This document shows positions 3,137-52,204 of a stretch of DNA of 54,489 bases, one piece after another (the stretch's first letter is position 1; the number at the start of each line of letters is the position of its first letter). The notes beneath the pieces are model-generated. The model worked only from the letters and a program-made list of their open reading frames with translations. It was not told the origin of the DNA and did no database searches. Source of the DNA: a bacterium (GTDB lineage Bacteria > Cyanobacteriota > Vampirovibrionia > LMEP-6097); contig JBJTTW010000267.1 in the NCBI GenBank assembly GCA_046080385.1, forward strand, positions 1 through 54,489. The letters are read 5' to 3'. A program made the translations under genes and the position numbers.

Positions 3137-4221
3137 ATTAAAACATTCGCTCCTTTCTCAAACTCAAGCTGAGCTGCTTTATAAACATCCCGCCATTCTT
3201 TAGCAGCTGGAGAAAGCTTTTTCGGGAGTTTATCAGTAGAAAAATTATCTAAAAGATTTAGATTAGATAATGCTGAAATCAGCCTTTGCACATAAAAAGC
3301 GAAACCTATCGCTGGCAGATCAATACCAAAGCTTGAATATAGATTATCGTATCTACCACCCATAGCGATATCATTACCTTGCCCTTTAATTAACAGCTTA
3401 AAATGCAGTCCCGTATAGAGTTTTAAATCTGGACACTGATACGGTGCGAAGACTATTTTAGAAGAAAGCTGAGCTAAACTCTTTAAGTGACTTAAATCTA
3501 AATCTAAATCCTTTTCAACTCTTTTTAACTTCTCTTCATTTGGAACAGATAGACTTATCTGCTCTTGGCTATAAAGGCACTTAAGAAAACTTTCTTCAAC
3601 AGCTAGTTTTTCAAATGCAACAAATTCACCTTTCAGTAAAAGGTTATAAGCCTTAGTAATTAAATCATGGCTAGAAGAAGCTTCTGAACTGATTACTGGG
3701 ACTGGTTTATTAAATTTAGCAAATAAGCTATGCCAGATTTTAGCATCGGTTATACAGATCTGATAATCACTTACACCTAATTCCTCAATAGAATCTATCA
3801 TTAATTGCAATACTTCATAATCGGAAAAGTTTTCTTCAGCCTTAGCACCGACATACTCTATACCGACTTGCTGTATCTCTCTAGATTCATCAGTAGGAGT
3901 GCCTTTATAGCGATAAACAGAAGCATTATAGTATAGCTTCACTGGAAGCTGAAGCTCTTGAGCCCTGCCAGCTATTGCTTTAGCAATAGGCTGAGTCATC
4001 TCTGTTCTCAGAGCAAGAGTTTCACCATCTTTATCTAAAAATGTAAAAGTTTTATCGGTAAACTTTTTATTTGCCCTATTTATAACATCTAAATCTACTA
4101 AACTCTGCACTACTATTGGTTCATAAGACCATTTTTCATAAAGAGCCACCAGCTTATTTTTTATCGCAAGCTGCTTTCTAACGTCAGATGGCAGCCATGT
4201 TTTTAAACCTCTAAATACCAT
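3124..4221 (-). CDS. hisZ: ATP phosphoribosyltransferase regulatory subunit (HisRS paralogue)
   Basis: Class II aaRS-like core without an anticodon-binding domain. It lies directly upstream of, and overlaps, short-form hisG. Confidence 0.8.
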   Translation of the reverse strand: MVFRGLKTWLPSDVRKQLAIKNKLVALYEKWSYEPIVVQSLVDLDVINRANKKFTDKTFTFLDKDGETLALRTEMTQPIAKAIAGRAQELQLPVKLYYNASVYRYKGTPTDESREIQQVGIEYVGAKAEENFSDYEVLQLMIDSIEELGVSDYQICITDAKIWHSLFAKFNKPVPVISSEASSSHDLITKAYNLLLKGEFVAFEKLAVEESFLKCLYSQEQISLSVPNEEKLKRVEKDLDLDLSHLKSLAQLSSKIVFAPYQCPDLKLYTGLHFKLLIKGQGNDIAMGGRYDNLYSSFGIDLPAIGFAFYVQRLISALSNLNLLDNFSTDKLPKKLSPAAKEWRDVYKAAQLEFEKGANVLICNK

Positions 4222-9885: not shown

Positions 9886-11310
9886 ATGCAGGAAATACAG
9901 TTAACAAACGGGAAACACGGTCACACTCTGAATGCCACACAAATCTTCTCCCCAGACGGTAATTGGTTAGTCTTCGATACTCGCAACGATGATACTCATA
10001 TAAGCCGCACGGGAAGTATCTGTAAGTTAAATATTGCGACTAAAGAAGTTATAGAACTTTATAAAACTAAAAATCAAAGCATTTATGGACCAGGGGTCGG
10101 GGCAGCAGCTTGGAACCCTGTCAATGACCAGATTATTTTCATTCATGGTCTTTTAAATTGTGATAAAGAAAAGCCTTACAGCTTCACAAGAAGGTTTGGA
10201 GCGATTATTTCAGGGAATCATCAAGCGGGCGAAAACGCAGAAATTGGAGTTCGGCAGCAGTGCCATCATGCGGAAGGGAGGAATATTCAAGAACCACTTA
10301 GCAAAGGAGCCTTAAGAGGCGGAACCCATGCTCATACGTGGAGTGCTGATGGCAAGTGGATTAGCTTTACTTACAACGATTATGTTATGGAATGTTTAGA
10401 AAAAACTTCTTCAAGTGAAAGAAAAGACTTGAGGACTATCGGCGTGATGACGATAGTAGAGAATATTCATGAGGATCGTGAGGCGGGTGAAAACGCAGAA
10501 ATTGGAGTTCGGCAGCAGTGCCCTGAAGAGAATTTCAGAGGAAGGTATTTCACGGTAATAACAGCTAAAGTTACAGAAAATCCTCAATTCGGCAGTGATG
10601 AAATAGAGCGAGCTTTCGATGAATGCTGGCTAGGGAAAAATGGTTACACGAAAGACGATAGCACTGTTCACAATGGTTCACAGCAGGCACGAGCCATAGC
10701 CTTTCAAGGAAATGTCCGTTCACTAGATGGGACTTTAGTTACAGAAGTTTTTATAGCAGATATTCCAGAGGATATAACACAATCACTCACAGATAAGCCA
10801 TTAGAAGGCACTTTAGATACAAGGCCTAATGTACCAGCAGGTTTAGTGCAAAGAAGAATTACTTTTACTACGGAAAGAAAATACCCTGGGCTTCAAGGAC
10901 CACGTTTCAGGCTACGCAGTTCAGCAGATGGAAGCTTGATTTATTTTCTAATGAAAGATGATAACGATATAGTTCAAATCTACTCAGTGAGCAGCATTAA
11001 AGATACTAAAAATATAATCACAAATCAGCCACTTAAACAAATAACAAATTTTAAATACTCAATTCAGTCACAATTCAATCTCAGCCCTGATGATAAATAC
11101 ATTTCAGTACTGTCTAACAATCAAATATATTTAGTTAACGTGCAAGATGGCAATATAACTAAGATCAGTGAGAGATACAGTGATAGAGAAGCACCAATCA
11201 GCGGCATACACTGGAGTCCAGACGGTAAAAGTTTAATTTACAATCGTTATGCCTTTATGGAAGATGCTTACTATATTCAGATTTTTCAAAGACTAATACC
11301 AAATGTGTAA
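9886..11310 (+). CDS. Beta-propeller (TolB/DUF3748-like) protein with two R1-derived in-frame inserts
   Basis: Repeated ..SPDG(N/K)W.. propeller-blade motifs. It contains GENAEIGVRQQC twice, encoded by nearly identical DNA. Confidence 0.6.
   Translation: MQEIQLTNGKHGHTLNATQIFSPDGNWLVFDTRNDDTHISRTGSICKLNIATKEVIELYKTKNQSIYGPGVGAAAWNPVNDQIIFIHGLLNCDKEKPYSFTRRFGAIISGNHQAGENAEIGVRQQCHHAEGRNIQEPLSKGALRGGTHAHTWSADGKWISFTYNDYVMECLEKTSSSERKDLRTIGVMTIVENIHEDREAGENAEIGVRQQCPEENFRGRYFTVITAKVTENPQFGSDEIERAFDECWLGKNGYTKDDSTVHNGSQQARAIAFQGNVRSLDGTLVTEVFIADIPEDITQSLTDKPLEGTLDTRPNVPAGLVQRRITFTTERKYPGLQGPRFRLRSSADGSLIYFLMKDDNDIVQIYSVSSIKDTKNIITNQPLKQITNFKYSIQSQFNLSPDDKYISVLSNNQIYLVNVQDGNITKISERYSDREAPISGIHWSPDGKSLIYNRYAFMEDAYYIQIFQRLIPNV
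10214..10264 (+). repeat. R1 right-half element inside a CDS
   Basis: ggaatcatcaagcgggcgaaaacgcagaaattggagttcggcagcagtgcc aligns to the right half of R1. Same reading frame as the 1769 copy. Confidence 0.8.
10468..10522 (+). repeat. R1 right-half element inside a CDS
   Basis: catgaggatcgtgaggcgggtgaaaacgcagaaattggagttcggcagcagtgcc. Same frame (HEDREAGENAEIGVRQQC). Confidence 0.8.
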
Positions 11311-16292: not shown

Positions 16293-16355
16293 GGGCGTGT
16301 AGCGAAACTCCAATTTCTGCGTTTTCCTTGAACTTGTTCGTTCGGCTACACGCCC
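16293..16355 (-). mobile_element. R1 element, short form (internal deletion)
   Basis: Arms are gggcgtgtagcgaaac / gttcggctacacgccc. The core is reduced to tccaatttctgcgttttc|cttgaacttgttc. Flanking pentamers are GTGAT / ATGAT (4/5). It starts 1 nt after the Fic stop codon. Confidence 0.8.
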
Positions 16356-30271: not shown

Positions 30272-30346
30272 CGCACTGTTGCTGGACCCCAATTTCTGCG
30301 TCTTCGTCGTCCTCAGCCTTGAACTTGTTCGCTCGGCAGCAGTGCC
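30272..30346 (-). mobile_element. R1 element, short form (deletion between the internal tcgtcctc repeats)
   Basis: Arms are cgcactgttgctggac / gctcggcagcagtgcc. Flanking pentamers are GTAAT / GTAGT (4/5). It starts 1 nt after the rplY stop. Confidence 0.8.
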
Positions 30347-30378
30347 GTAGTAAAGACGTTTCTTTCTAAGCTTGCTAT

Positions 30379-31817: not shown

Positions 31818-31834
31818 ATAAGAAAATACCTCTT

Positions 31835-31955
31835 GAGACTGTTTCCAAACTACAATTTCTTCGTTTTCGTCGTCCTCATGATCCTCATATACCTATAGTA
31901 CACTGCGGTCATTCGTTCTCCTCAGCCTTGAACTTGCACGCTTGAAAACAGTCTC
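31835..31955 (-). mobile_element. R1 element, full length (121 bp)
   Basis: Arms are gagactgtttccaaac / gcttgaaaacagtctc. Flanking pentamers are CTCTT / ATCTT (4/5). It ends 17 nt from ATG 31817. Confidence 0.85.
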
Positions 31956-32035
31956 ATCTTAGATTTACAAGTATCAAAAAAAAATAAAGGTTAAGTTAAG
32001 AGCAAATCGCTAAATTATAGATAAATCGAGAAAAA

Positions 32036-40044: not shown

Positions 40045-41733
40045 TTGTTTGAAATCGGAAAAAACACTTGGATATTTGAATGTGGTGACGACATCATGCT
40101 TGTTGATGCTGGACTCGCCTTCCCGACTGCAAGCATGATAGGAGTAGATATAGTACTCCCTAAAATTAATTATTTAGTCGCTAACAAAGATCGCATCAGA
40201 GGCATGATAGTAACCCACGGTCATGAAGATCATATTGGTGGTATAGTGCCGATGCTCAGGGAAATTAATATTCCAATCATTTATGCACCTGGCCTGGCTT
40301 ACGCCTTAATTCAAAGCAAACTTAAAGAAGCGAATGTACTACATCAAAAGATGGTCTGGACTAAAGCTAGAGACAGGGTTCAGATTGGTCAGCATTTTTC
40401 AGTTCAATATATAAGAAATAATCATAGTATCGCAGATAGCTACTGCCTGATCATCGATACACCAGCAGGTAGAATCGTACATAGTGGTGATTTCAAATTC
40501 GATCACAGCCCAGTAGAGAACCAGTATTTCGACATTCGCAGCTTAGCTGCGGCTGGAGAGTCTGGTGTAGACCTGCTTATAAGCGATAGCACTAATGCAG
40601 AAAGAGCTGGTTACACACCATCAGAGAAAGCAGTTATACCTAAGCTTAAAGAAATGATTTTTAATTCTAGAAAAAAATTATTTATCACGACCTTCGCTAG
40701 CCAAGTAAGCCGTGTGAAAATCGTCTTGCAGCTTGCTCTGCAAGCTAATAAAAAAGTAACTATATTTGGTAGATCTATGGTTAACCTAGCGAATATCTCT
40801 AGGGAACTGGGTTTCATTTCCATACCAGATAATTTCATAATCAAACAGGAAGAAGTAAATAAAATCCCCCCTGAAGATCTCGTTATTTTAACGACAGGCA
40901 GTCAGGGAGAGCAGTTCGCAGCCCTATCTCGTATCGCCCGTAACGAACATAAATACGTAAAAATACAAGCTGGAGATCAAGTGCTGATCAGTGCTTCACC
41001 GATACCAGGAAATGAAAAATCAGTTAATCATCTCATAGATAGCTTATTTGCTCGCGGAGCTGATGTTATTTATGGATTAGGTCAAACCATTCATGTCTCT
41101 GGCCACGCTAGCCAAGAAGAACAGAAAATGCTTTTAAATCTCTGCAAACCAGTTAACTTTATGCCTTGTCACGGCGAATATCGAATGCTGCTCAAACATG
41201 GTGAAACTGGAGTGAAATGCGGAGTCAATCCCGATAATATTTTCGTACTTGATAACGGGGATATTCTTGAAATGCAGGACGGAAAATGCTCTATTAAAGA
41301 AAGAGTCGACGCTGGTATAGTCCTTGTTGACAACGACAACGTCGGCAGGCTCGACGAAGATATAATCCTAGAAAGAAAAATGATATTAAGCGATGGCTTT
41401 ATATTAATCGTCGTTAATATCAATGCTTACGGCAAGTACAGTACCGAACCTAAATTAGATACTAGGGGTATATTATTACCACTTGGTTTTGATGAAAAGA
41501 GTTTTAAAAAAGAACTTATCGGCTTGACTCACGAAGCACTTGAAAGCATTACAGATAAAGAGAAACCATCTTCCATAGAAAATTTAGATAAATTTTCCCT
41601 GCAACTACAAAGCGTTATTTCTTCTAAAATTTATAATTTCCTTGATAATAGAACTCGCCGCTATCCACTGCTTGAGGTTGTGGTTTTAAGTAATCAAGGT
41701 GCGGTTAAGCCCGTAGTTGCTGGTTTAAACTAG
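40045..41733 (+). CDS. rnj: Ribonuclease J; the true start lies upstream of the listed TTG
   Basis: HGHEDHIGG motif. Conserved KVKIIALGGLFEIGKN begins at 40021, upstream of the first canonical start codon. Confidence 0.85.
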   Translation: MFEIGKNTWIFECGDDIMLVDAGLAFPTASMIGVDIVLPKINYLVANKDRIRGMIVTHGHEDHIGGIVPMLREINIPIIYAPGLAYALIQSKLKEANVLHQKMVWTKARDRVQIGQHFSVQYIRNNHSIADSYCLIIDTPAGRIVHSGDFKFDHSPVENQYFDIRSLAAAGESGVDLLISDSTNAERAGYTPSEKAVIPKLKEMIFNSRKKLFITTFASQVSRVKIVLQLALQANKKVTIFGRSMVNLANISRELGFISIPDNFIIKQEEVNKIPPEDLVILTTGSQGEQFAALSRIARNEHKYVKIQAGDQVLISASPIPGNEKSVNHLIDSLFARGADVIYGLGQTIHVSGHASQEEQKMLLNLCKPVNFMPCHGEYRMLLKHGETGVKCGVNPDNIFVLDNGDILEMQDGKCSIKERVDAGIVLVDNDNVGRLDEDIILERKMILSDGFILIVVNINAYGKYSTEPKLDTRGILLPLGFDEKSFKKELIGLTHEALESITDKEKPSSIENLDKFSLQLQSVISSKIYNFLDNRTRRYPLLEVVVLSNQGAVKPVVAGLN

Positions 41734-41740
41734 GAAACTG

Positions 41741-42164
41741 GGGGGACTACTCCCAAACTCCAATTTCTGCGTTTTCGTCGTCCTCATGATCCTCATGCAC
41801 ACCTAGTGCACTGCGGTCATTCGTCCTCCTCAGCCTTGAACTTGTTCGTTTGTGAGCAGTCCCCCTCCTGTGATGGCTCCCAATCTTCAATTTCTGCGTT
41901 TTCGTCGTCCTCATGATCCTCATGCACACCTAGTGCACTGCGGTCATTCGTCCTCCTCAGCCTTGAACTTGTTCGTTTGTGAGCAGTCCCCCTCCTGTGA
42001 TAGCTCCCAAACTCCAATTCCTGCGTTTTCGTCGTCCTCATGATCCTCATGCACACCTAAGTGCACTGCGGTCATTCGTCCTCCTCAGCCTTGAACTTGT
42101 TCGTTTGTGAGCAGTCCCCCTCCTGTGATAGCTCCCAATCTTCAATTTTTGCGTTTTCGTCGTC
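41741..42164 (-). repeat. Head-to-tail tandem array of R1 units (3 full units plus a partial fourth; period 127/127/128 bp)
   Basis: ctcccaa[ac][ct]tccaattt.. recurs at 41750, 41877, 42004 and 42132. The first unit has both arms (gggggactactcccaaac / gtttgtgagcagtccccc). Confidence 0.9.
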
Positions 42165-42210
42165 AAGCGATAGCAGCGTGCTAAAATTAAAGTTTTGAGG
42201 AGTAAAATTA

Positions 42211-43248
42211 ATGCCTGTAGCTAACTATAAACAATACATTGAAATGCTCGATAGAGCTAAAAAAGATAAATACGCATATCCTGCGGTAAATATAACTTCA
42301 CTTGCGACTATCAGTGCGACTTTAAAAGCTTTTGCTGATGCTAAATCTGATGGTATCATCCAGGTTTCCACTGGTGGAGCTGAATTCGCTTCAGGTCTAG
42401 CACAAAAAAATATGGTTTTAGGAGCGACAGTGCTTGCTGAAGCCATTCATACTTTAGCTGAAAAATATGATATTTTAGTCGCTATCCACACTGACCACTG
42501 TCAGCCAGGGAAAGTAGATTCTTTCTTAAAGCCACTTATCGCGAAGACAGCAGAAAGAAGAGCTAAAGGCTTACCTAATTTATTTAACTCTCATATGTTT
42601 GATGGTTCTGAACTTTCGACTAAAGAGAACATAGCTATCGCTAAAGAACTTATTAAACTCTGTAATGATAACGAAATTATTTTAGAAGTAGAGACTGGTG
42701 TAGTCGGCGGCGAGGAAGATGGAGTGGATAACTCTGGTCATTCTAATGAAAAGCTTTATACGACACCAGAAGATATGCTTTACGTTTGGGAAGAATTAAG
42801 CCCAATTAACGAAAGATTTATGCTAGCTGCCACTTTCGGAAACGTGCATGGTGTCTACAAACCAGGTAACGTAAAACTTACACCTAGCATTCTTAAAGAA
42901 GGTCAGGCTGCAGTTAAAGCTAAATTTGGAAAAGAACACCTACTAGTATTTCATGGTGGCTCTGGCTCTGAGTTAAGCGATATTCACGAGACTTTAGAAT
43001 ATGGCGTTATTAAAATGAACATAGATACTGATACTCAGTACGCTTTCACTAGACCTATAGTGGAGCATATGTTTAAAAATTATGATGGCGTTCTTAAAAT
43101 CGAAGGCGAAGTAGGTAATAAAAAAGTTTATGATCCTAGATCTTACTTAAAGAAAGCTGAAGAAAGCATGGCTGCGAGAATTGGCCAAGCCTGCGCAGAT
43201 CTTAAATCTTCTGGTAAATCGATTTATAAATCTTTAGTTACGGCTTAG
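42211..43248 (+). CDS. fbaA: Fructose-bisphosphate aldolase, class II
   Basis: ..VAIHTDHC.. and ..VFHGGSGS.. motifs, with a gaggag SD upstream. Confidence 0.9.
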   Translation: MPVANYKQYIEMLDRAKKDKYAYPAVNITSLATISATLKAFADAKSDGIIQVSTGGAEFASGLAQKNMVLGATVLAEAIHTLAEKYDILVAIHTDHCQPGKVDSFLKPLIAKTAERRAKGLPNLFNSHMFDGSELSTKENIAIAKELIKLCNDNEIILEVETGVVGGEEDGVDNSGHSNEKLYTTPEDMLYVWEELSPINERFMLAATFGNVHGVYKPGNVKLTPSILKEGQAAVKAKFGKEHLLVFHGGSGSELSDIHETLEYGVIKMNIDTDTQYAFTRPIVEHMFKNYDGVLKIEGEVGNKKVYDPRSYLKKAEESMAARIGQACADLKSSGKSIYKSLVTA

Positions 43249-43918: not shown

Positions 43919-43958
43919 CTCAAATATATTTTTGAGGAAAAACGAACCCTTAAAATTT
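43919..43958 (+). repeat. R3 motif copy a (cassette leader)
   Basis: ctcaaatatatttttgaggaaaaacgaacccttaaaattt. Confidence 0.75.
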
Positions 43959-44231
43959 CAGAAAAAATTCAGCATACTCATATCCATGCCGCACTATGAG
44001 AGAGTCAATGAATACCGTATTGAGATTATTAAGTCACTAGGTTTTTGGCTTATAAGCCCGACTGGTTTATTAGTTTATATGTTTTTATTTGATGATACTA
44101 AATTATTTCAAGAAATGAATCTAGTAAAAGCTATGATAGCTTTACTGTTACTAATTTCTGGGATAAAATGCTTAGATAAAGCTTATGAAATAAATAAAGA
44201 GCTTGATAAAGAGGAAAACTGGAATGTCTAG
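43932..44231 (+). CDS. Small 2-TM membrane protein (cassette 1, gene A); likely starts at ATG 43986
   Basis: Weakly paralogous to 44441..44635 (K.LGFWLISP versus K.SGFAFLTP). Confidence 0.5.
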   Translation: MRKNEPLKFQKKFSILISMPHYERVNEYRIEIIKSLGFWLISPTGLLVYMFLFDDTKLFQEMNLVKAMIALLLLISGIKCLDKAYEINKELDKEENWNV

Positions 44232-44361
44232 AACACTGCTTATAGAGATACAACAAGCTTCACTAGTGCTTTTCAACGTCGCATGCGTCTACATCGGTAT
44301 TCACTGGGTTCTTTTCAGAGACCGTTCCAAAGAAAAAACTAAAAAAATTCAACAGCCTTAA
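44224..44361 (+). CDS. 45-aa single-TM peptide (cassette 1, gene B), not in the ORF track
   Basis: ATG overlaps the stop of gene A by 8 nt. Translates to MSRTLLIEIQQASLVLFNVACVYIGIHWVLFRDRSKEKTKKIQQP. A decayed paralogue lies at 45377. Confidence 0.45.
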   Translation: MSRTLLIEIQQASLVLFNVACVYIGIHWVLFRDRSKEKTKKIQQP

Positions 44362-44374
44362 TATTAAAATTTTT

Positions 44375-44414
44375 CTCAAATATATTTTTGAGGAAAAACG
44401 ACCCCTTAAAATTT
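44375..44414 (+). repeat. R3 motif copy b
   Basis: ctcaaatatatttttgaggaaaaacgaccccttaaaattt. Confidence 0.75.
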
Positions 44415-44440
44415 TTTCTATTTTTGCGAAGCTAATTTAA

Positions 44441-44635
44441 GTGGGTAATTTAATCGAGCCGTATAAATACTGTGCAGATGTTTTAAAATATTCTGGCTTT
44501 GCTTTTCTCACTCCAGTAGCGAGTTTGGTACTAAGCTTGATAACAGATTTTTCTTTTACATTTGATCCTAATCAATTAGAGCGGTATGTTGTTGCTGGAT
44601 TATTTTTCATTTTGGAATTAAAATTTATCTTATAA
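44441..44635 (+). CDS. Small 2-TM membrane protein (cassette 2, gene A)
   Basis: GTG start, 64 aa. Confidence 0.45.
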   Translation: MGNLIEPYKYCADVLKYSGFAFLTPVASLVLSLITDFSFTFDPNQLERYVVAGLFFILELKFIL

Positions 44636-44666
44636 GGCTTATCCATATTACAAAAAGGAGTTATTG

Positions 44667-44804
44667 ATGAATCTGCAAAATCTTGATTGGAATTTCATCT
44701 ATGGTGTGATTTTTTTAGTAATACCTATGCTCATAGGAGCCTTTTGGCTTGAATATCACTGTTATCACCTAAAAATGCGTGAGCTAGAGACTTTAGAAAA
44801 GTAA
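44667..44804 (+). CDS. 45-aa single-TM peptide (cassette 2, gene B), not in the ORF track
   Basis: aaggag SD 7 nt upstream. Translates to MNLQNLDWNFIYGVIFLVIPMLIGAFWLEYHCYHLKMRELETLEK. Confidence 0.5.
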   Translation: MNLQNLDWNFIYGVIFLVIPMLIGAFWLEYHCYHLKMRELETLEK

Positions 44805-44808
44805 TAAT

Positions 44809-44835
44809 GGAGGAAAAACGACCCCTTAAAATTTT
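44809..44835 (+). repeat. R3 motif copy c (partial)
   Basis: ggaggaaaaacgaccccttaaaatttt. Confidence 0.7.
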
Positions 44836-45000
44836 GTTCAAGATGAAGCAGAATTTTTTCTATGGATTTATCTGAGAAGATAGAAATATTAGAATCTGAA
44901 AAAGTTAAGTCTAGAATCCTTATGCAGGGTGGCTTTTGTTGCATGATACCTTTTACATAATGCTTTTAATGAGTTACCATAAAATAAGACGCTAGGAGAA

Positions 45001-45106
45001 TTATACCATTCTGGAAAATTCTTTTGAGTCCAAGCAGTCGGAAACTAGGACTGCGCAAGGGACATATAAAAGTCTTTTTCAGATTAAAATGGTATTTTGG
45101 TATTAG
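45001..45106 (+). mobile_element. R2 repeat copy a (~106 bp, MITE-like)
   Basis: ttataccattctggaaaattc...gattaaaatggtattttggtattag. By hand alignment, 104/106 identical to the reverse complement of 47406..47511. Confidence 0.8.
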
Positions 45107-45109
45107 AAT

Positions 45110-45289
45110 ATGGCTTGGGATTATTTTTTTACTATGCCTGCTATTACAGTCCTATTTTTTCTTTTAATTTATCGCTTGCATTATGGGTTTTATAAAATCG
45201 ATTTAGAATGTGGCGATAAAAATGCAATAAAGCCCACATTAGCAGAGGTTTTTCTTGGGATTAGAAAAAAGAAGTCTGAGGAAAAATAA
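45110..45289 (+). CDS. 59-aa single-TM peptide, not in the ORF track
   Basis: MAWDYFFTMPAITVLFFLLIYRLHYGFYKIDLECGDKNAIKPTLAEVFLGIRKKKSEEK. The ATG is 4 nt after the end of R2a. Confidence 0.35.
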   Translation: MAWDYFFTMPAITVLFFLLIYRLHYGFYKIDLECGDKNAIKPTLAEVFLGIRKKKSEEK

Positions 45290-45376
45290 CTCCATTTTTT
45301 ATGTTTATTTATTGGAGAACAGCCTACTGTAGCTGATCAGATGCCTATCCTCCCCTAACTAAAGACGAAAGCTACA

Positions 45377-45515
45377 ATGCCTAAAACACTACTCATCGAG
45401 ATACAACCATCTTCACTAATGCTTTTCAACGTCGCATGCCTCTATACCCCGGCATTCACTAGGTGCTTTTCAGAGACCGTTCCAAAGATAAAAAACTAAA
45501 AAAATTACACAGCCC
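45377..45515 (+). pseudogene. Decayed paralogue of the 44224 peptide gene
   Basis: atgcctaaaacactactcatcgagatacaacc.. parallels 44224.. at the DNA level, but indels shift the frame after about 22 codons. Homology runs up to the R2b insertion. Confidence 0.55.
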
Positions 45516-45620
45516 TAATACCATTCTGCAAAATTCTTTCGAGCTCCCAGCAGTCCAAAATTAGGACGACACAAGGGATATGAAAAAATTTCCAGATCAA
45601 AATGGTATTTTGATATTAAG
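45516..45620 (+). mobile_element. R2 repeat copy b (diverged)
   Basis: taataccattctgcaaaattctttcgag...atcaaaatggtattttgatattaag. It interrupts the sequence that is contiguous at 44355-44375 in cassette 1. Confidence 0.7.
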
Positions 45621-46045: not shown

Positions 46046-46067
46046 ATCTTAATCAGTAAAAAGTAAT

Positions 46068-46135
46068 CTCCCCCGAACTCCAATTTCTATGCTTTTATCC
46101 TCCTCAGTCTTGAACTCACACCTTCGGCAACAGTG
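46068..46135 (-). repeat. R1 element, short and degenerate (the arms no longer pair)
   Basis: ctcccccgaactccaatttctatgcttttatcctcctcagtcttgaactcacaccttcggcaacagtg. Confidence 0.65.
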
Positions 46136-46238
46136 AAAATCCTCTAAAACCTAAATCACGCTTCGCTAAATTTTAAACTTAGAGCTGTGAGTCCCACAAT
46201 TTTTAGATATAAAAATTACCGCTTCTTTTTCTTTTCAA

Positions 46239-46359
46239 GGCACTGTTGCCGAACAAACAAGTTCAAGGCCGAGGAGGACGAATGACCGCAGTGTACTGCG
46301 GGTACATGAGGATCATGAGGACGACGAAAACGCAGAAATTGGAGTTCGGCAACAGTGCC
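46239..46359 (+). mobile_element. R1 element, full length; used here as the reference orientation
   Basis: Perfect 16-bp terminal inverted repeat ggcactgttgccgaac / gttcggcaacagtgcc. Its open frame runs in-frame into the nuclease fragment. Confidence 0.9.
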
Positions 46360-46388
46360 AAGATAGAACTAGCTCAGGTCGTATAGAT

Positions 46389-46592
46389 ATGGTTTTAGAA
46401 ACAAGTTCTAAAATTTATTTATTTGAGTTTAAGGTAAATTCGACATCTAGACTAGCGTTAGAACAGATTAAAGAAAAAAAATATTATGAGAAATATGAAA
46501 ATGTCGAAGATAAAAAACTTTTACTTGTAGGTATTAATTTTGATTTAAATTCTAAAAATATCTCAGAGACTGAGGTTCTAGAGTGGAATTAA
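46389..46592 (+). pseudogene. C-terminal fragment of a PD-(D/E)XK (DUF1703/AAA-ATPase-like associated) nuclease family gene
   Basis: (GRID)MVLETSSKIYLFEFKVNSTSRLALEQIKEKKYYEKY.. matches the C-terminus of that family. The roughly 400 upstream codons are absent, and R1 sits at the break. Confidence 0.6.
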
Positions 46593-47344
46593 CAGCTGTG
46601 CTGTACCTGACTAATCGCTGTAATCTATTCTGTGATCACTGTGATCAAAGCTCAGGTAATGCACGTGAAAATGAATTGACTACTAGTGAAATTCTTCAAG
46701 GAGTAGAGAAACTCTTAAAGGGAGAGCCTTTTGAGCATTTGCAGTTCGAGATCTCAGAAAGTAGAGTGCCACACAATTCTACTCCTGTAGCAGGGCAAGA
46801 GATCAGGCACGTCTGCCTATCTGGAGGAGAGCCTGTATTACATAAAGATTTTTTCTATATAGCTCGCACTTTGATGGATTGGGGATTAGAAGTGAGTTTC
46901 ATTACTAACGCGACTTTTAGTCCAGTCTATTATTCACGAATATTAGAATTGGACTTTAATGCAATTTACGTAAGCTTAGATGGTCTAGAAAATACACATA
47001 ATTTACTAAGGCGTTCTGGATTGAGTTTTAAGAGGGTAATTCAGTTCTTGGAGTTTGTAAATGACTGTTTGGCTAAGCCAGTAGCTGAAATAGGCTTAAA
47101 TGCGACTGTTGCTGAGCCTCTAAACTCAATACAGAAAGTTTTTTCAGGGGATCTTTATGTTGTGACTTGCGTTACATCTAAGTCTGTTAATGATTTAGAG
47201 GCTTTATCTGAATTGCTTTCTAAGTACAAAATTACTAAATGGTTTTTAAAGCCTCTTGAAATGAAGGGAAGGGCTTTAGAGCATCCAGAGTTGTGGGTGG
47301 ATGCTTCTACAGAAGAACAATTTCTGCGTTATAGCAAAAGATAA
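46583..47344 (+). CDS. Radical SAM protein, no SPASM/twitch C-terminal domain
   Basis: CNLFCDHC (CxxxCxxC), GGEP, and SLDG..H...R motifs. GTG start. Confidence 0.7.
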   Translation: MELTAVLYLTNRCNLFCDHCDQSSGNARENELTTSEILQGVEKLLKGEPFEHLQFEISESRVPHNSTPVAGQEIRHVCLSGGEPVLHKDFFYIARTLMDWGLEVSFITNATFSPVYYSRILELDFNAIYVSLDGLENTHNLLRRSGLSFKRVIQFLEFVNDCLAKPVAEIGLNATVAEPLNSIQKVFSGDLYVVTCVTSKSVNDLEALSELLSKYKITKWFLKPLEMKGRALEHPELWVDASTEEQFLRYSKR

Positions 47345-47405
47345 GAAAATGTTTAAGATTGTTTTGAATTTCACTTGTTGTTTCAATTTAAGAATGTTAT
47401 CATCT

Positions 47406-47511
47406 CTAATACCAAAATACCATTTTAATCTGAAAAAGACTTTTATATGTCCCTTGCGCAATCCTAGTTTCGGACTGCTTGGACTCAAAAGAATTTTCCA
47501 GAATGGTATAA
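47406..47511 (-). mobile_element. R2 repeat copy c (inverted relative to copy a)
   Basis: Reverse complement of 45001..45106 with 2 mismatches. Confidence 0.8.
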
Positions 47512-50675: not shown

Positions 50676-51779
50676 ATGACTGTGGCTAATGAATCAAGAA
50701 TTTTATCTGTTTGGAAATTAAGAACTTATCAACTTTTTGTTATTTCTTTATTTTTCTTTATCGTAAATAATGTACTTTCTGCTGTATCTCAAGTTTCAGA
50801 TATTAGTGCTAGTTTCTTTATTGGTGTTCTTATTAATTACTTATTATCTAAGCCTGTAGATTTTCTAACTCACTATATACGCTCTCGTGCTTTGTCTGTT
50901 GCCATAATTTATTTAACTTTTATTGGACTTTTGATCACTTTAATTATTAATGGTTTTCCAGTGATATTTGTTCAGGCACAAGCTTTGATAAACGTTTTTC
51001 CGCAGCTTCTACCTAAGATTAATTCGGTAATTGAGTTTGTTTTATTATATTTAGCTCAACATCAAATTAATATTAGTTTTGTGAGCCTTGATTTAAGCAG
51101 CTTTGCAAATAACTTACTTCAGCTCAAACAGAATATGACGGTCGCTGATTTTGGTTCAGTGTTCACTTCTTTTATTACTAATTCTTTTTCTTTAATTCTT
51201 TATTCTTTGCTTTCGATTTTAATTAGTATTTATTTACTGGTAGACGGAAAAAGAGTCTGGGACCTGTTTCTAGAGCCTTTTACGGGTAAACTTAAAGATC
51301 ATTTATTTTATTTAAAACAAAGAATTGATAAAAGCCTTTATGCATTTATTGTTGGACAGTTTCAAATAGCTTCTTTAACTACACTTGTTATGACTTGTAC
51401 TTATTTTGCTCTCAATATACCCTTTGCACTGGTTTTTGGCTTGTGTCAAATGTTGGAGGTTATACCAGTAATTGGAACTTGGGTAGCGATAATTCCATGT
51501 GTAGTCCTAATTGGTTTTGCTACTACGCCAACTAAAGCTTTAATAGCTTTTGGTGTTTATATTTTCTATACGCAGATTATTCGAGATAATTTCGTTACTC
51601 CGCGTATTATGGGAGATGCACTTGGCTTTCATCCTTTAGCGATTATTCTAGGATTGCTGGTTGCAGCTAAGCTGTATGGGGCGATTGGAATAGTTTTTGC
51701 TCTGCCTTTAATGGCTGTAATCGGTGCTGCGATTCAATATTTTCTTGAGGTTAATCATCTTAAGGTTAAGAAAATTTAG
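50676..51779 (+). CDS. AI-2E family transporter (PerM-like)
   Basis: Eight hydrophobic segments in a PF01594-like layout. Confidence 0.75.
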   Translation: MTVANESRILSVWKLRTYQLFVISLFFFIVNNVLSAVSQVSDISASFFIGVLINYLLSKPVDFLTHYIRSRALSVAIIYLTFIGLLITLIINGFPVIFVQAQALINVFPQLLPKINSVIEFVLLYLAQHQINISFVSLDLSSFANNLLQLKQNMTVADFGSVFTSFITNSFSLILYSLLSILISIYLLVDGKRVWDLFLEPFTGKLKDHLFYLKQRIDKSLYAFIVGQFQIASLTTLVMTCTYFALNIPFALVFGLCQMLEVIPVIGTWVAIIPCVVLIGFATTPTKALIAFGVYIFYTQIIRDNFVTPRIMGDALGFHPLAIILGLLVAAKLYGAIGIVFALPLMAVIGAAIQYFLEVNHLKVKKI

Positions 51780-51780
51780 A

Positions 51781-51869
51781 GGCGGGCGAAAACGCAGAAA
51801 ATGGAGTTCCGCAGTGGTGGGCGTGTAGCCGAACGAACAAGTTCAAGGCTGAGGAGGACGAATGACTGC
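51781..51869 (+). repeat. R1 composite: a right-half unit followed by a left-half unit (tandem-junction arrangement)
   Basis: ggcgggcgaaaacgcagaaaatggagttccgcagtggt + gggcgtgtagccgaacgaacaagttcaaggctgaggaggacgaatgactgc. It fills the whole gap between two convergent stop codons. Confidence 0.75.
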
Positions 51870-51871
51870 TA

Positions 51872-52204
51872 TTAGTACATAGGTACGTTAGTGTCGATCT
51901 CCTCAGACCAAGCATGAATGCCGCCTTCAAGGTTATAGAGCTTGTCAAAATCATCAGCTTGCTCTTGCAGCCAAGATATAACTTTTTTACTTCTGCTGCC
52001 GTGGTGGCAGTGAAATACCACTGGTCTATCTTTAGGGATTTTAGACAGATTTTCTGGAATTTCTTGCATTGGGATTAGCTCACCCTTGAGATTCGCATAT
52101 TTATATTCGTCTGGGTTTCTAACATCAATGAGTAGAAAATCTTTTGATTCATCGCGCCATAGTTTTAAATCAGAGACGGATATTTGTTTTATTTCTTTGA
52201 ACAT
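51872..52204 (-). CDS. Rhodanese-domain sulfurtransferase
   Basis: Active-site loop CHHGSRS. Confidence 0.8.
   Translation of the reverse strand: MFKEIKQISVSDLKLWRDESKDFLLIDVRNPDEYKYANLKGELIPMQEIPENLSKIPKDRPVVFHCHHGSRSKKVISWLQEQADDFDKLYNLEGGIHAWSEEIDTNVPMY

Follow-up and report, generated by a model that had tools for sequence, protein, structure and literature searches.

The closest described counterparts of the repeat element reported here are the Rickettsia palindromic elements (RPEs), which are ~120–150 bp in length and multicopy in their host genomes (Ogata et al. 2000, as summarised in PMC10969869). Roughly half of the RPE copies are in-frame insertions in unrelated metabolic or housekeeping ORFs, where they encode a conserved peptide, and RPEs have no transposase of their own (PMC10969869). 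Tandem arrays of RPEs are not mentioned in that 2024 MITE review (PMC10969869). Our element is like the RPEs in that it is a small, multicopy palindromic repeat that resides in-frame in unrelated ORFs, encodes a conserved peptide and is without a transposase. It differs from them in its host, which belongs to the Cyanobacteriota (class Vampirovibrionia) rather than the Alphaproteobacteria, and in that 5-bp target duplications (TSDs), empty sites, fast compensatory evolution of the arms and tandem arrays ending in a partial unit are documented here. By analogy, the element appears to work like the RPEs, a likeness of behaviour and not of sequence membership.

The element also resembles bacterial MITEs such as Correia/NEMIS, ERIC and Nezha (PMC10969869 and general background), with which it shares terminal inverted repeats (TIRs), a TSD, small size, high copy number, the lack of a transposase, internally deleted derivatives and potential hairpins in transcripts. 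In typical MITEs the TIRs are the conserved part, because they are bound by the parental transposase, whereas in our element the arms are the most variable part and covary, and it is the interior that is conserved. A third likeness is to the REP/BIME clusters of enterobacteria, in which palindromic units are arranged in tandem in the intergenic spacers of co-transcribed genes, with copy numbers that vary between strains. BIMEs are composed of ~35-nt REPs in alternating orientation that are mobilised by RAYT (HUH) transposases without TSDs, and they are extragenic by definition and untranslated.

Results

The window (the whole 54,489-nt stretch of DNA that was analysed) carries asd, dapA, rnj and fbaA in that order, all on the + strand, with a tandem array of the element, R1, between rnj and fbaA. 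The upstream neighbour, rnj (40096–41733, + strand), encodes RNase J (NCBIfam RNase J, E = 4e-173); its 545-aa form agrees with gene calls elsewhere and has an exact product on record, the mechanical ORF having its start at 40045. The array occupies positions 41741–42164 and consists of 3.3 head-to-tail units with in-register start-to-start spacings of 127, 127 and 128 nt. It begins 7 nt downstream of the rnj stop at 41733, and its last unit ends at 42164, 46 nt upstream of the ATG of fbaA, the gene for class II fructose-bisphosphate aldolase (42211–43248, + strand). Both the array and the truncation of its last unit had been proposed in the first-pass annotation of this sequence, and both were borne out, with Tandem Repeats Finder reporting a repeat at 41750–42164 with a period of 127, 3.3 copies, 96% matches and a score of 772. 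Pairwise identity between the units is 96.9–97.7%, the differences being unit-specific substitutions and one 1-nt indel.

Unit 1 (41741–41865, + strand) is full, has the complementary arms GGGGGACTACTCCCAAAC (41741–41758) and GTTTGTGAGCAGTCCCCC (41848–41865), and folds into a long hairpin, with z = -3.4 on the + strand and z = -7.1 on the - strand. The stretch that follows (41866–41992, + strand) comprises a TCCT junction and unit 2, which has the left arm GTGATGGCTCCCAATC, degenerate in its outer 7 nt, and a right arm identical to that of unit 1. A TCCT junction also precedes unit 3 (41993–42120, + strand; left arm GTGATAGCTCCCAAAC), which is 128 nt in length because of one extra A and also has one T>C change. 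The final stretch (42121–42164, + strand) is again a TCCT junction, here followed by a truncated unit of ~0.3 made up of the left arm GTGATAGCTCCCAATC and TTCAATTTTTGCGTTTTCGTCGTC. It had been thought that only the first unit has a complete outer arm. This needs to be corrected: the later units have full-length left arms, in which the outer 7 nt have diverged (GTGATGG or GTGATAG versus GGGGGAC) and are unpaired with the right arm. At two diagnostic sites, the units of the window alternate as a, b, a, b'.

Alignment of 61 copies defined an element of 121 nt, with 16-nt terminal arms, a 5-bp central hairpin, an interior that is ~95% conserved and the sub-terminal conserved sequences AACTCCAATTTCTGCG and CCTTGAACTTG. 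The arms are the most variable part, yet they are complementary, with 92% of cells paired across the 61 copies. Changes on both sides were observed in 14 of the 16 arm pairs, the observed values were reached in 0 of 500 shuffles, and in a control in which the partner was slid by 1–3 columns only 26–39% of cells were paired. Compensatory changes were also found in two of the five pairs of the central hairpin. A long hairpin is predicted for either strand of the element (z = -3.4 to -7.1), and arm mismatches of the G-T and A-C types number 22 and 40, respectively, which is too weak a difference to name a functional RNA strand.

Perfect 5-bp direct repeats abut the arms in 17 of 63 copies, with element boundaries taken from the alignment, in comparison to an expected 0.84 and a maximum of 5 in 2000 shuffles; in 31 of the 63 the flanking 5-mers match at four or more of the five positions. 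These flanks are direct repeats and not an extension of the palindrome. Orthologous empty sites with a single copy of the 5-mer were found when L047 was compared to L034 and L003 to L046. At the rnj-fbaA locus, an outgroup (L166, a more distant relative) has kept the asd-dapA-rnj-fbaA order with a 140-nt rnj-fbaA spacer without the element. With its 5-bp TSD, the 121-nt element lengthens its target by 126 nt, equal to 42 codons. In the ~0.7 Mb of sequence examined, no transposase was found between a left end and a right end of the element. R1 thus has the TIRs, the TSDs with empty sites and the small, multicopy, transposase-free form of a MITE, in agreement with the first-pass annotation, and it is a non-autonomous MITE-like palindromic mobile element. 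The fast-changing, compensating arms are not what sequence-specific binding by a transposase would predict. An IS630-type transposase pair (DDE_3 and HTH domains) was noted ~1.6 kb downstream of fbaA in one relative (L167, 6674–7715, - strand). The target duplications of IS630 elements are TA, and IS630 is for that reason an unlikely partner for the element.

The family has a narrow distribution. An exact, conserved 22-mer occurs at 83 or more loci in a collection of species-representative genomes, all from five MAGs of the Caenarcaniphilales/Melainabacteria/Vampirovibrionia type, one of which is mislabelled as Proteobacteria, and the peptide encoded by the element was found only in such Caenarcaniphilales-type MAGs. 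The element family is confined to Caenarcaniphilales (Melainabacteria/Vampirovibrionia) MAGs. The RFQS01 loci of MAG WB4_1_1465 (e.g., L004), labelled “Proteobacteria bacterium”, have DNA ~90% identical to the window as well as the element family, and this MAG is therefore probably a mislabelled Caenarcaniphilales genome. Searches of phage and plasmid collections with the element gave no match, and a single contig in IMG/VR carries it. That contig (L199, IMGVR_UViG_3300042866_002883), which is predicted to be viral, has three copies or fragments (3619–3669, 3941–3978 and 10182–10280) and may derive from a prophage in a Caenarcaniphilales genome. No description of the element was found in the literature searched.

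Several other identities for the repeat were considered and rejected. Rfam returned nothing at the gathering threshold, and its best match at the E-value threshold was PrrB_RsmZ (E = 4.3); a ribozyme or other known RNA family was accordingly rejected. A structured non-coding RNA gene or riboswitch leader was set aside on the same lack of an Rfam family, and on the occurrence of copies in all orientations to their neighbours and inside ORFs. A CRISPR array was rejected in that the units abut with 4–5 nt between them and are without unique spacers.

Many copies reside within genes. Near-full copies were found in open frames of at least 120 codons in 31 of 70 cases, and all 31 lie on the strand opposite to the array orientation and in one frame. 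The peptide encoded, G-T/R-V-A-E/K-R-T/A-SSRLRRTNDRSVLxVHEDHEDDENAEIGV, is hydrophilic and acidic. Ten host ORFs gave ten different Pfam families, with unrelated housekeeping proteins among them (DabA, cytochrome c assembly, FAD oxidoreductase, GMP synthase, CysN-type GTPase, epimerase, PyrK Fe-S domain, TrmD, signal peptidase and Bro-N), and in several of these ORFs the domain is split by the insert. The length of the insert keeps the frame in 25 of 25 ORF-embedded copies, and where ORFs contain copies in tandem the periods are 129 and 123 nt. This constraint on frame implies that the insert would be translated rather than removed. It is this 126-nt, 42-codon insert, with its one orientation and frame in ORFs, that leads us to regard the element as behaving like an RPE.

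Substitutions in the element are distributed over the codon positions as 57/40/58. This absence of codon periodicity indicates that it is the DNA that is conserved and not a protein domain; a protein domain rather than mobile DNA was rejected on that basis together with the unrelated hosts, the TSDs and the empty sites. A second stop-free frame, in the forward orientation, is open in 44 of the 61 copies and is never used. Filtering by stop codons alone therefore does not explain the orientation bias and was rejected as its sole cause. Gene callers annotate intergenic copies as “hypothetical proteins” of 42–70 aa (P0121–P0167), and the mechanical minus-strand ORFs of the array (41747–42056, - strand; 60 and 79 aa) are of that spurious kind.

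Elsewhere in the window, the element gave 11 profile matches at ~8 separate sites, which are full, internally deleted or truncated and lie on both strands. One full copy (1767–1891, + strand), with the perfect TSD TTCTG, is in-frame on the - strand near the C-terminus of an ORF (1713–2453, - strand) with a Bro-N domain, a domain that is often phage-associated. A full intergenic copy at 31833–31956 (+ strand) has the covarying arms GAGACTGTTTCCAAAC and GCTTGAAAACAGTCTC, and another full copy, at 46237–46361, is in the opposite orientation (- strand). Solo left-end fragments were found at 10213–10265 (- strand; 0.3 unit, the orthologous site in MAG REEB446 having 1.3 units) and at 10464–10523 (- strand). 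The copy at 30273–30347 (+ strand) is an internally deleted short form of ~74 nt that has lost the stretch between two direct repeats in its interior, TTCGTCGTCCTCA and TTCGTCCTCCTCA, and similar short forms are present at 16294–16355 and 46064–46137. Deletions between these two repeats give rise to 74-nt forms, and deletions to ~45–59 nt to “mini” hairpins. At 51757–51880 (- strand) there is a unit right half, ACCAC and a partial left end, joined as in the array; a junction of right half followed by left half had previously been remarked at 51781–51869, and it is indeed present, reading in element orientation as right arm, ACCAC and partial left end.

Some further variation was observed in and around these copies. 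In L043, L042 and L082 a 9-nt internal expansion, in which TCCTCATGA is repeated, adds one more “HED” to the encoded peptide. A different repeat family is represented in the window by two inverted 107-nt copies (45001–45107 and 47405–47511) that are 98% complementary and enclose the R1 copies at 46064–46137 and 46237–46361 and a radical-SAM ORF (46583–47344). Just downstream of fbaA, at 43919–45620, there are several direct-repeat families spaced ~1155 nt and ~420–456 nt apart, which suggests a duplicated segment of small ORFs without a family match.

The layout of N full units followed by a trailing 0.3 unit (N.3) is not limited to rnj-fbaA, as it was observed at 11 or more loci in several genomes. 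Each N.3 junction consists of a right arm, ~5 nt, and a left arm that is full-length but degenerate. Orthologous sites were found to differ by one unit: L072 has 1.3 units and the window site at 10213–10265 has 0.3, with a gap of 126 nt, and L051 has 1.3 units and L068 has 0.3, with a gap of 128 nt. In copies collected free of seed bias (the count being made on seed-free copies), those truncated copies that keep the left end outnumber those that keep the right end by 38 to 6. Solo left-end fragments have arisen from full copies either by recombination or by microhomology deletion (such as TCGT..TCGT in L043/L018).

To place the array among its relatives, the rnj-fbaA spacer of the window was compared to that of 28 other assemblies of related lineages (L165, L172–L198), which were reached through the FbaA 90%-identity cluster. 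A scan of metagenome_contigs with FbaA found only relatives of ≤71% identity and was useless for the orthologous locus. The lineages compared have FbaA proteins of a single 90%-identity cluster, and the nearest of these proteins shares 99% identity with that of the window. Their spacers and that of the window make up at least seven structural alleles, of which six come from the 28 assemblies, with 0.3 to 3.3 units. The spacer has the 0.3 unit only in five assemblies (spacer of 76–77 nt), a mini and 0.3 in two, a 5'-deleted unit and 0.3 in one, two minis and 0.3 in seven, a full unit and 0.3 in six, and a full unit, a mini and 0.3 in six, with a scaffold gap at the spacer in the remaining assembly. 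Three full units and 0.3 were found in the window only.

All of these alleles end in one trailing 0.3 unit, the piece common to the whole locus, beside a conserved block, GTGCTAAAATTA, and all units at rnj-fbaA have a right arm of the GTTTGTGAGCAGTCCC type. The internal units share the right arm of the first unit, and their left end is of the trailing unit's kind (25–28 of 30 identities) and not of the first unit's. The units of the window are 97–98% alike, but their identity to units of other lineages at the rnj-fbaA locus is only 77–82%, which points to a recent expansion or to homogenisation of the units.

Discussion

Overall, we favor an account, to which we assign a probability of roughly three in four, in which R1 is an RPE-like MITE family and the rnj-fbaA array was formed from a pair of full and truncated copies by unequal recombination or slippage. 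At the rnj-fbaA spacer, a full copy would have come to lie head-to-tail with a truncated copy that had kept the first 33–43 nt. The 30–40 nt of left-end sequence shared by the two would then provide the direct repeat at which unequal homologous recombination or replication slippage takes place, each event adding or removing whole units. The lineage of the window would recently have expanded to three full units next to the old truncated unit. That the internal units combine the left arm of the trailing unit with the right arm of the first points to such an exchange between a full and an adjacent truncated copy. The mechanism and the recency of the expansion are read from sequence comparisons, and both are probable rather than certain.

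The first-pass annotation had argued that the array was not produced by repeated transposition, and our data support this. Its suggestion of slippage-type amplification also fits, given that orthologous sites differ by whole units and that the internal units are recombinants of the first and trailing ones; the rolling-circle amplification it offered beside this is possible but not needed. Simple stepwise unequal crossing-over without gene conversion does not give the a, b, a, b' alternation of the units. The recombination account also leaves unexplained the bias of 38 to 6 in the ends retained and the frequency of full-plus-truncated pairs.

A different explanation is that N.3 arrays are made in one step by polar copying that ends in a truncated unit, either by rolling-circle copying of a circular intermediate or by reverse transcription with template jumping, truncated copies being dead on arrival. 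The N.3 layout recurs from locus to locus and has its truncated unit on the same side each time, truncated copies are strongly polar, the junctions (right end, ~5 nt, left end) resemble IS circle junctions, and the trailing partial usually has the inner arm of the adjacent full unit. At rnj-fbaA, however, the trailing unit is common to all alleles and has an arm type unlike that of the first unit, which indicates an older, separate copy. In addition, orthologous pairs reveal that full copies give rise to solos through recombination or through microhomology deletion (TCGT..TCGT, TGA), a fixed 5-bp TSD suits a staggered transposase cut better than target-primed reverse transcription, and in the ~0.7 Mb examined the element is not linked to a gene for reverse transcriptase or Rep. 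On balance, we consider one-step copying of the array unlikely.

A broader proposal concerns the mobility of the element as a whole. The element may owe its mobility to polar copying that depends on structure, with the hairpin as the feature recognised, and that proceeds via an ssDNA or RNA intermediate, with no sequence-specific transposase. Such hairpin-dependent copying would join the compensating, fast-changing arms, the nearly constant truncation of copies at the same end and the head-to-tail N.3 arrays. We hold this idea to be improbable. If it were true, the rnj-fbaA array would record that mechanism as well as recombination, and the element would be a bacterial analogue of SINEs, a hairpin-templated mobile element that routinely rewrites protein sequences.

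The possibility that the array serves fbaA has to be weighed separately. The first-pass annotation had proposed that each unit presents an anti-SD decoy to the fbaA ribosome-binding site, TTGAGGAG (42195–42202, + strand). In a regulatory reading of this kind, the array would lie in the fbaA 5' UTR, where its CCUCCUC motifs pair with or compete for the SD and the number of units tunes translation; in a related version, the hypervariable array is a contingency locus that varies the expression of rnj or fbaA within populations. The complementarity is real, as CTCCTCA in each unit matches TGAGGAG at 42196–42202 over 7 nt (CUCCUCA/UGAGGAG in RNA). The array also runs in the direction of both genes, and polymorphism at the locus is striking. 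An intrinsic terminator after rnj was looked for and rejected, the spacer being without a terminator-like site.

The decoy interpretation itself is not supported. The motif, GTCCTCCTCAGCC, is the reverse complement of the element codons CTG AGG AGG ACG (LRRT) and is conserved in every copy genome-wide, whatever the neighbours, so that the LRRT codons of the opposite strand account for its presence; moreover, copies occur in both orientations relative to neighbouring genes. When the array was folded in silico with the fbaA ribosome-binding site, the SD was paired in both the minimum-free-energy and centroid structures, though with the left arm of the trailing unit and not with GTCCTCCTCAGCC, and the local fold containing the SD did not outperform shuffled sequence (z = -0.99). 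The first-pass annotation had also suggested selection for several copies here. Over the seven or more alleles the number of units varies from 0.3 to 3.3, yet the FbaA proteins all fall in a single 90%-identity cluster (closest, 99%), and this argues against selection for a given copy number.

The only sigma-70-like promoter match in the spacer (42160–42187, + strand) consists of TCGTCA, 16 nt and TAAAAT with TG upstream, giving the extended -10 TGCTAAAAT; it lies downstream of the array, and one such match was found where 1.5 are expected by chance. The GTGCTAAAATTA block at this site is kept in all alleles. If this match to consensus is used, fbaA transcription would start downstream of the array, the very arrangement that the first-pass annotation had named as counting against its proposal. 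Taken together, a regulatory leader or contingency locus seems to us doubtful. We infer that the array is not dedicated to the regulation of fbaA and that its hairpins are at most incidental structures in the rnj 3' region; a local modulatory effect on rnj or fbaA may nevertheless exist.

The least probable explanation is that an assembler created or miscounted three near-identical units. In its favor, a Logan assembly made independently from this sample is broken at each edge of the array (one contig ends near 41752 and the next starts at 42109), and a stretch of N occupies this position in one related scaffold. Against it, artefactual duplication would not create the unit-specific substitutions and the 1-nt indel, multi-unit alleles of the rnj-fbaA locus were assembled independently in other samples, two to five times each, and in-frame tandem arrays occur within ORFs elsewhere (L018, L068). 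The first-pass annotation had raised the possibility of collapse in an independent assembly. Because the Logan breaks fall at the array edges, its contigs confirm both outer junctions but not the count of 3.3, and the unit-specific substitutions indicate at least three distinct full units. In the related scaffold (L178; ERZ28593686 scaffold_1358), the N run is exactly at the array position in the rnj-fbaA spacer, such that this locus defeats scaffolding elsewhere too.

Conclusions

The repeat is best explained as an RPE-like MITE family that is new for Melainabacteria, and the array formed by it next to fbaA, a central glycolytic gene, seems to be a neutral by-product that changes rapidly and not a regulator. 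The element family has practical consequences, as it breaks short-read assemblies, creates spurious “hypothetical proteins” of 42–70 aa, and inflates or splits domain hits in annotated enzymes. It should be masked in the annotation of Melainabacteria MAGs.

Until now, the in-frame colonisation of housekeeping genes by a palindromic element has been essentially a Rickettsia curiosity. R1 provides a second, independent system, in free-living, non-photosynthetic relatives of the cyanobacteria, that offers clean TSDs and empty sites, an insert of 42 codons and numerous natural alleles. This system can be used to study how such elements move, why one frame is tolerated, and what they contribute to protein evolution.
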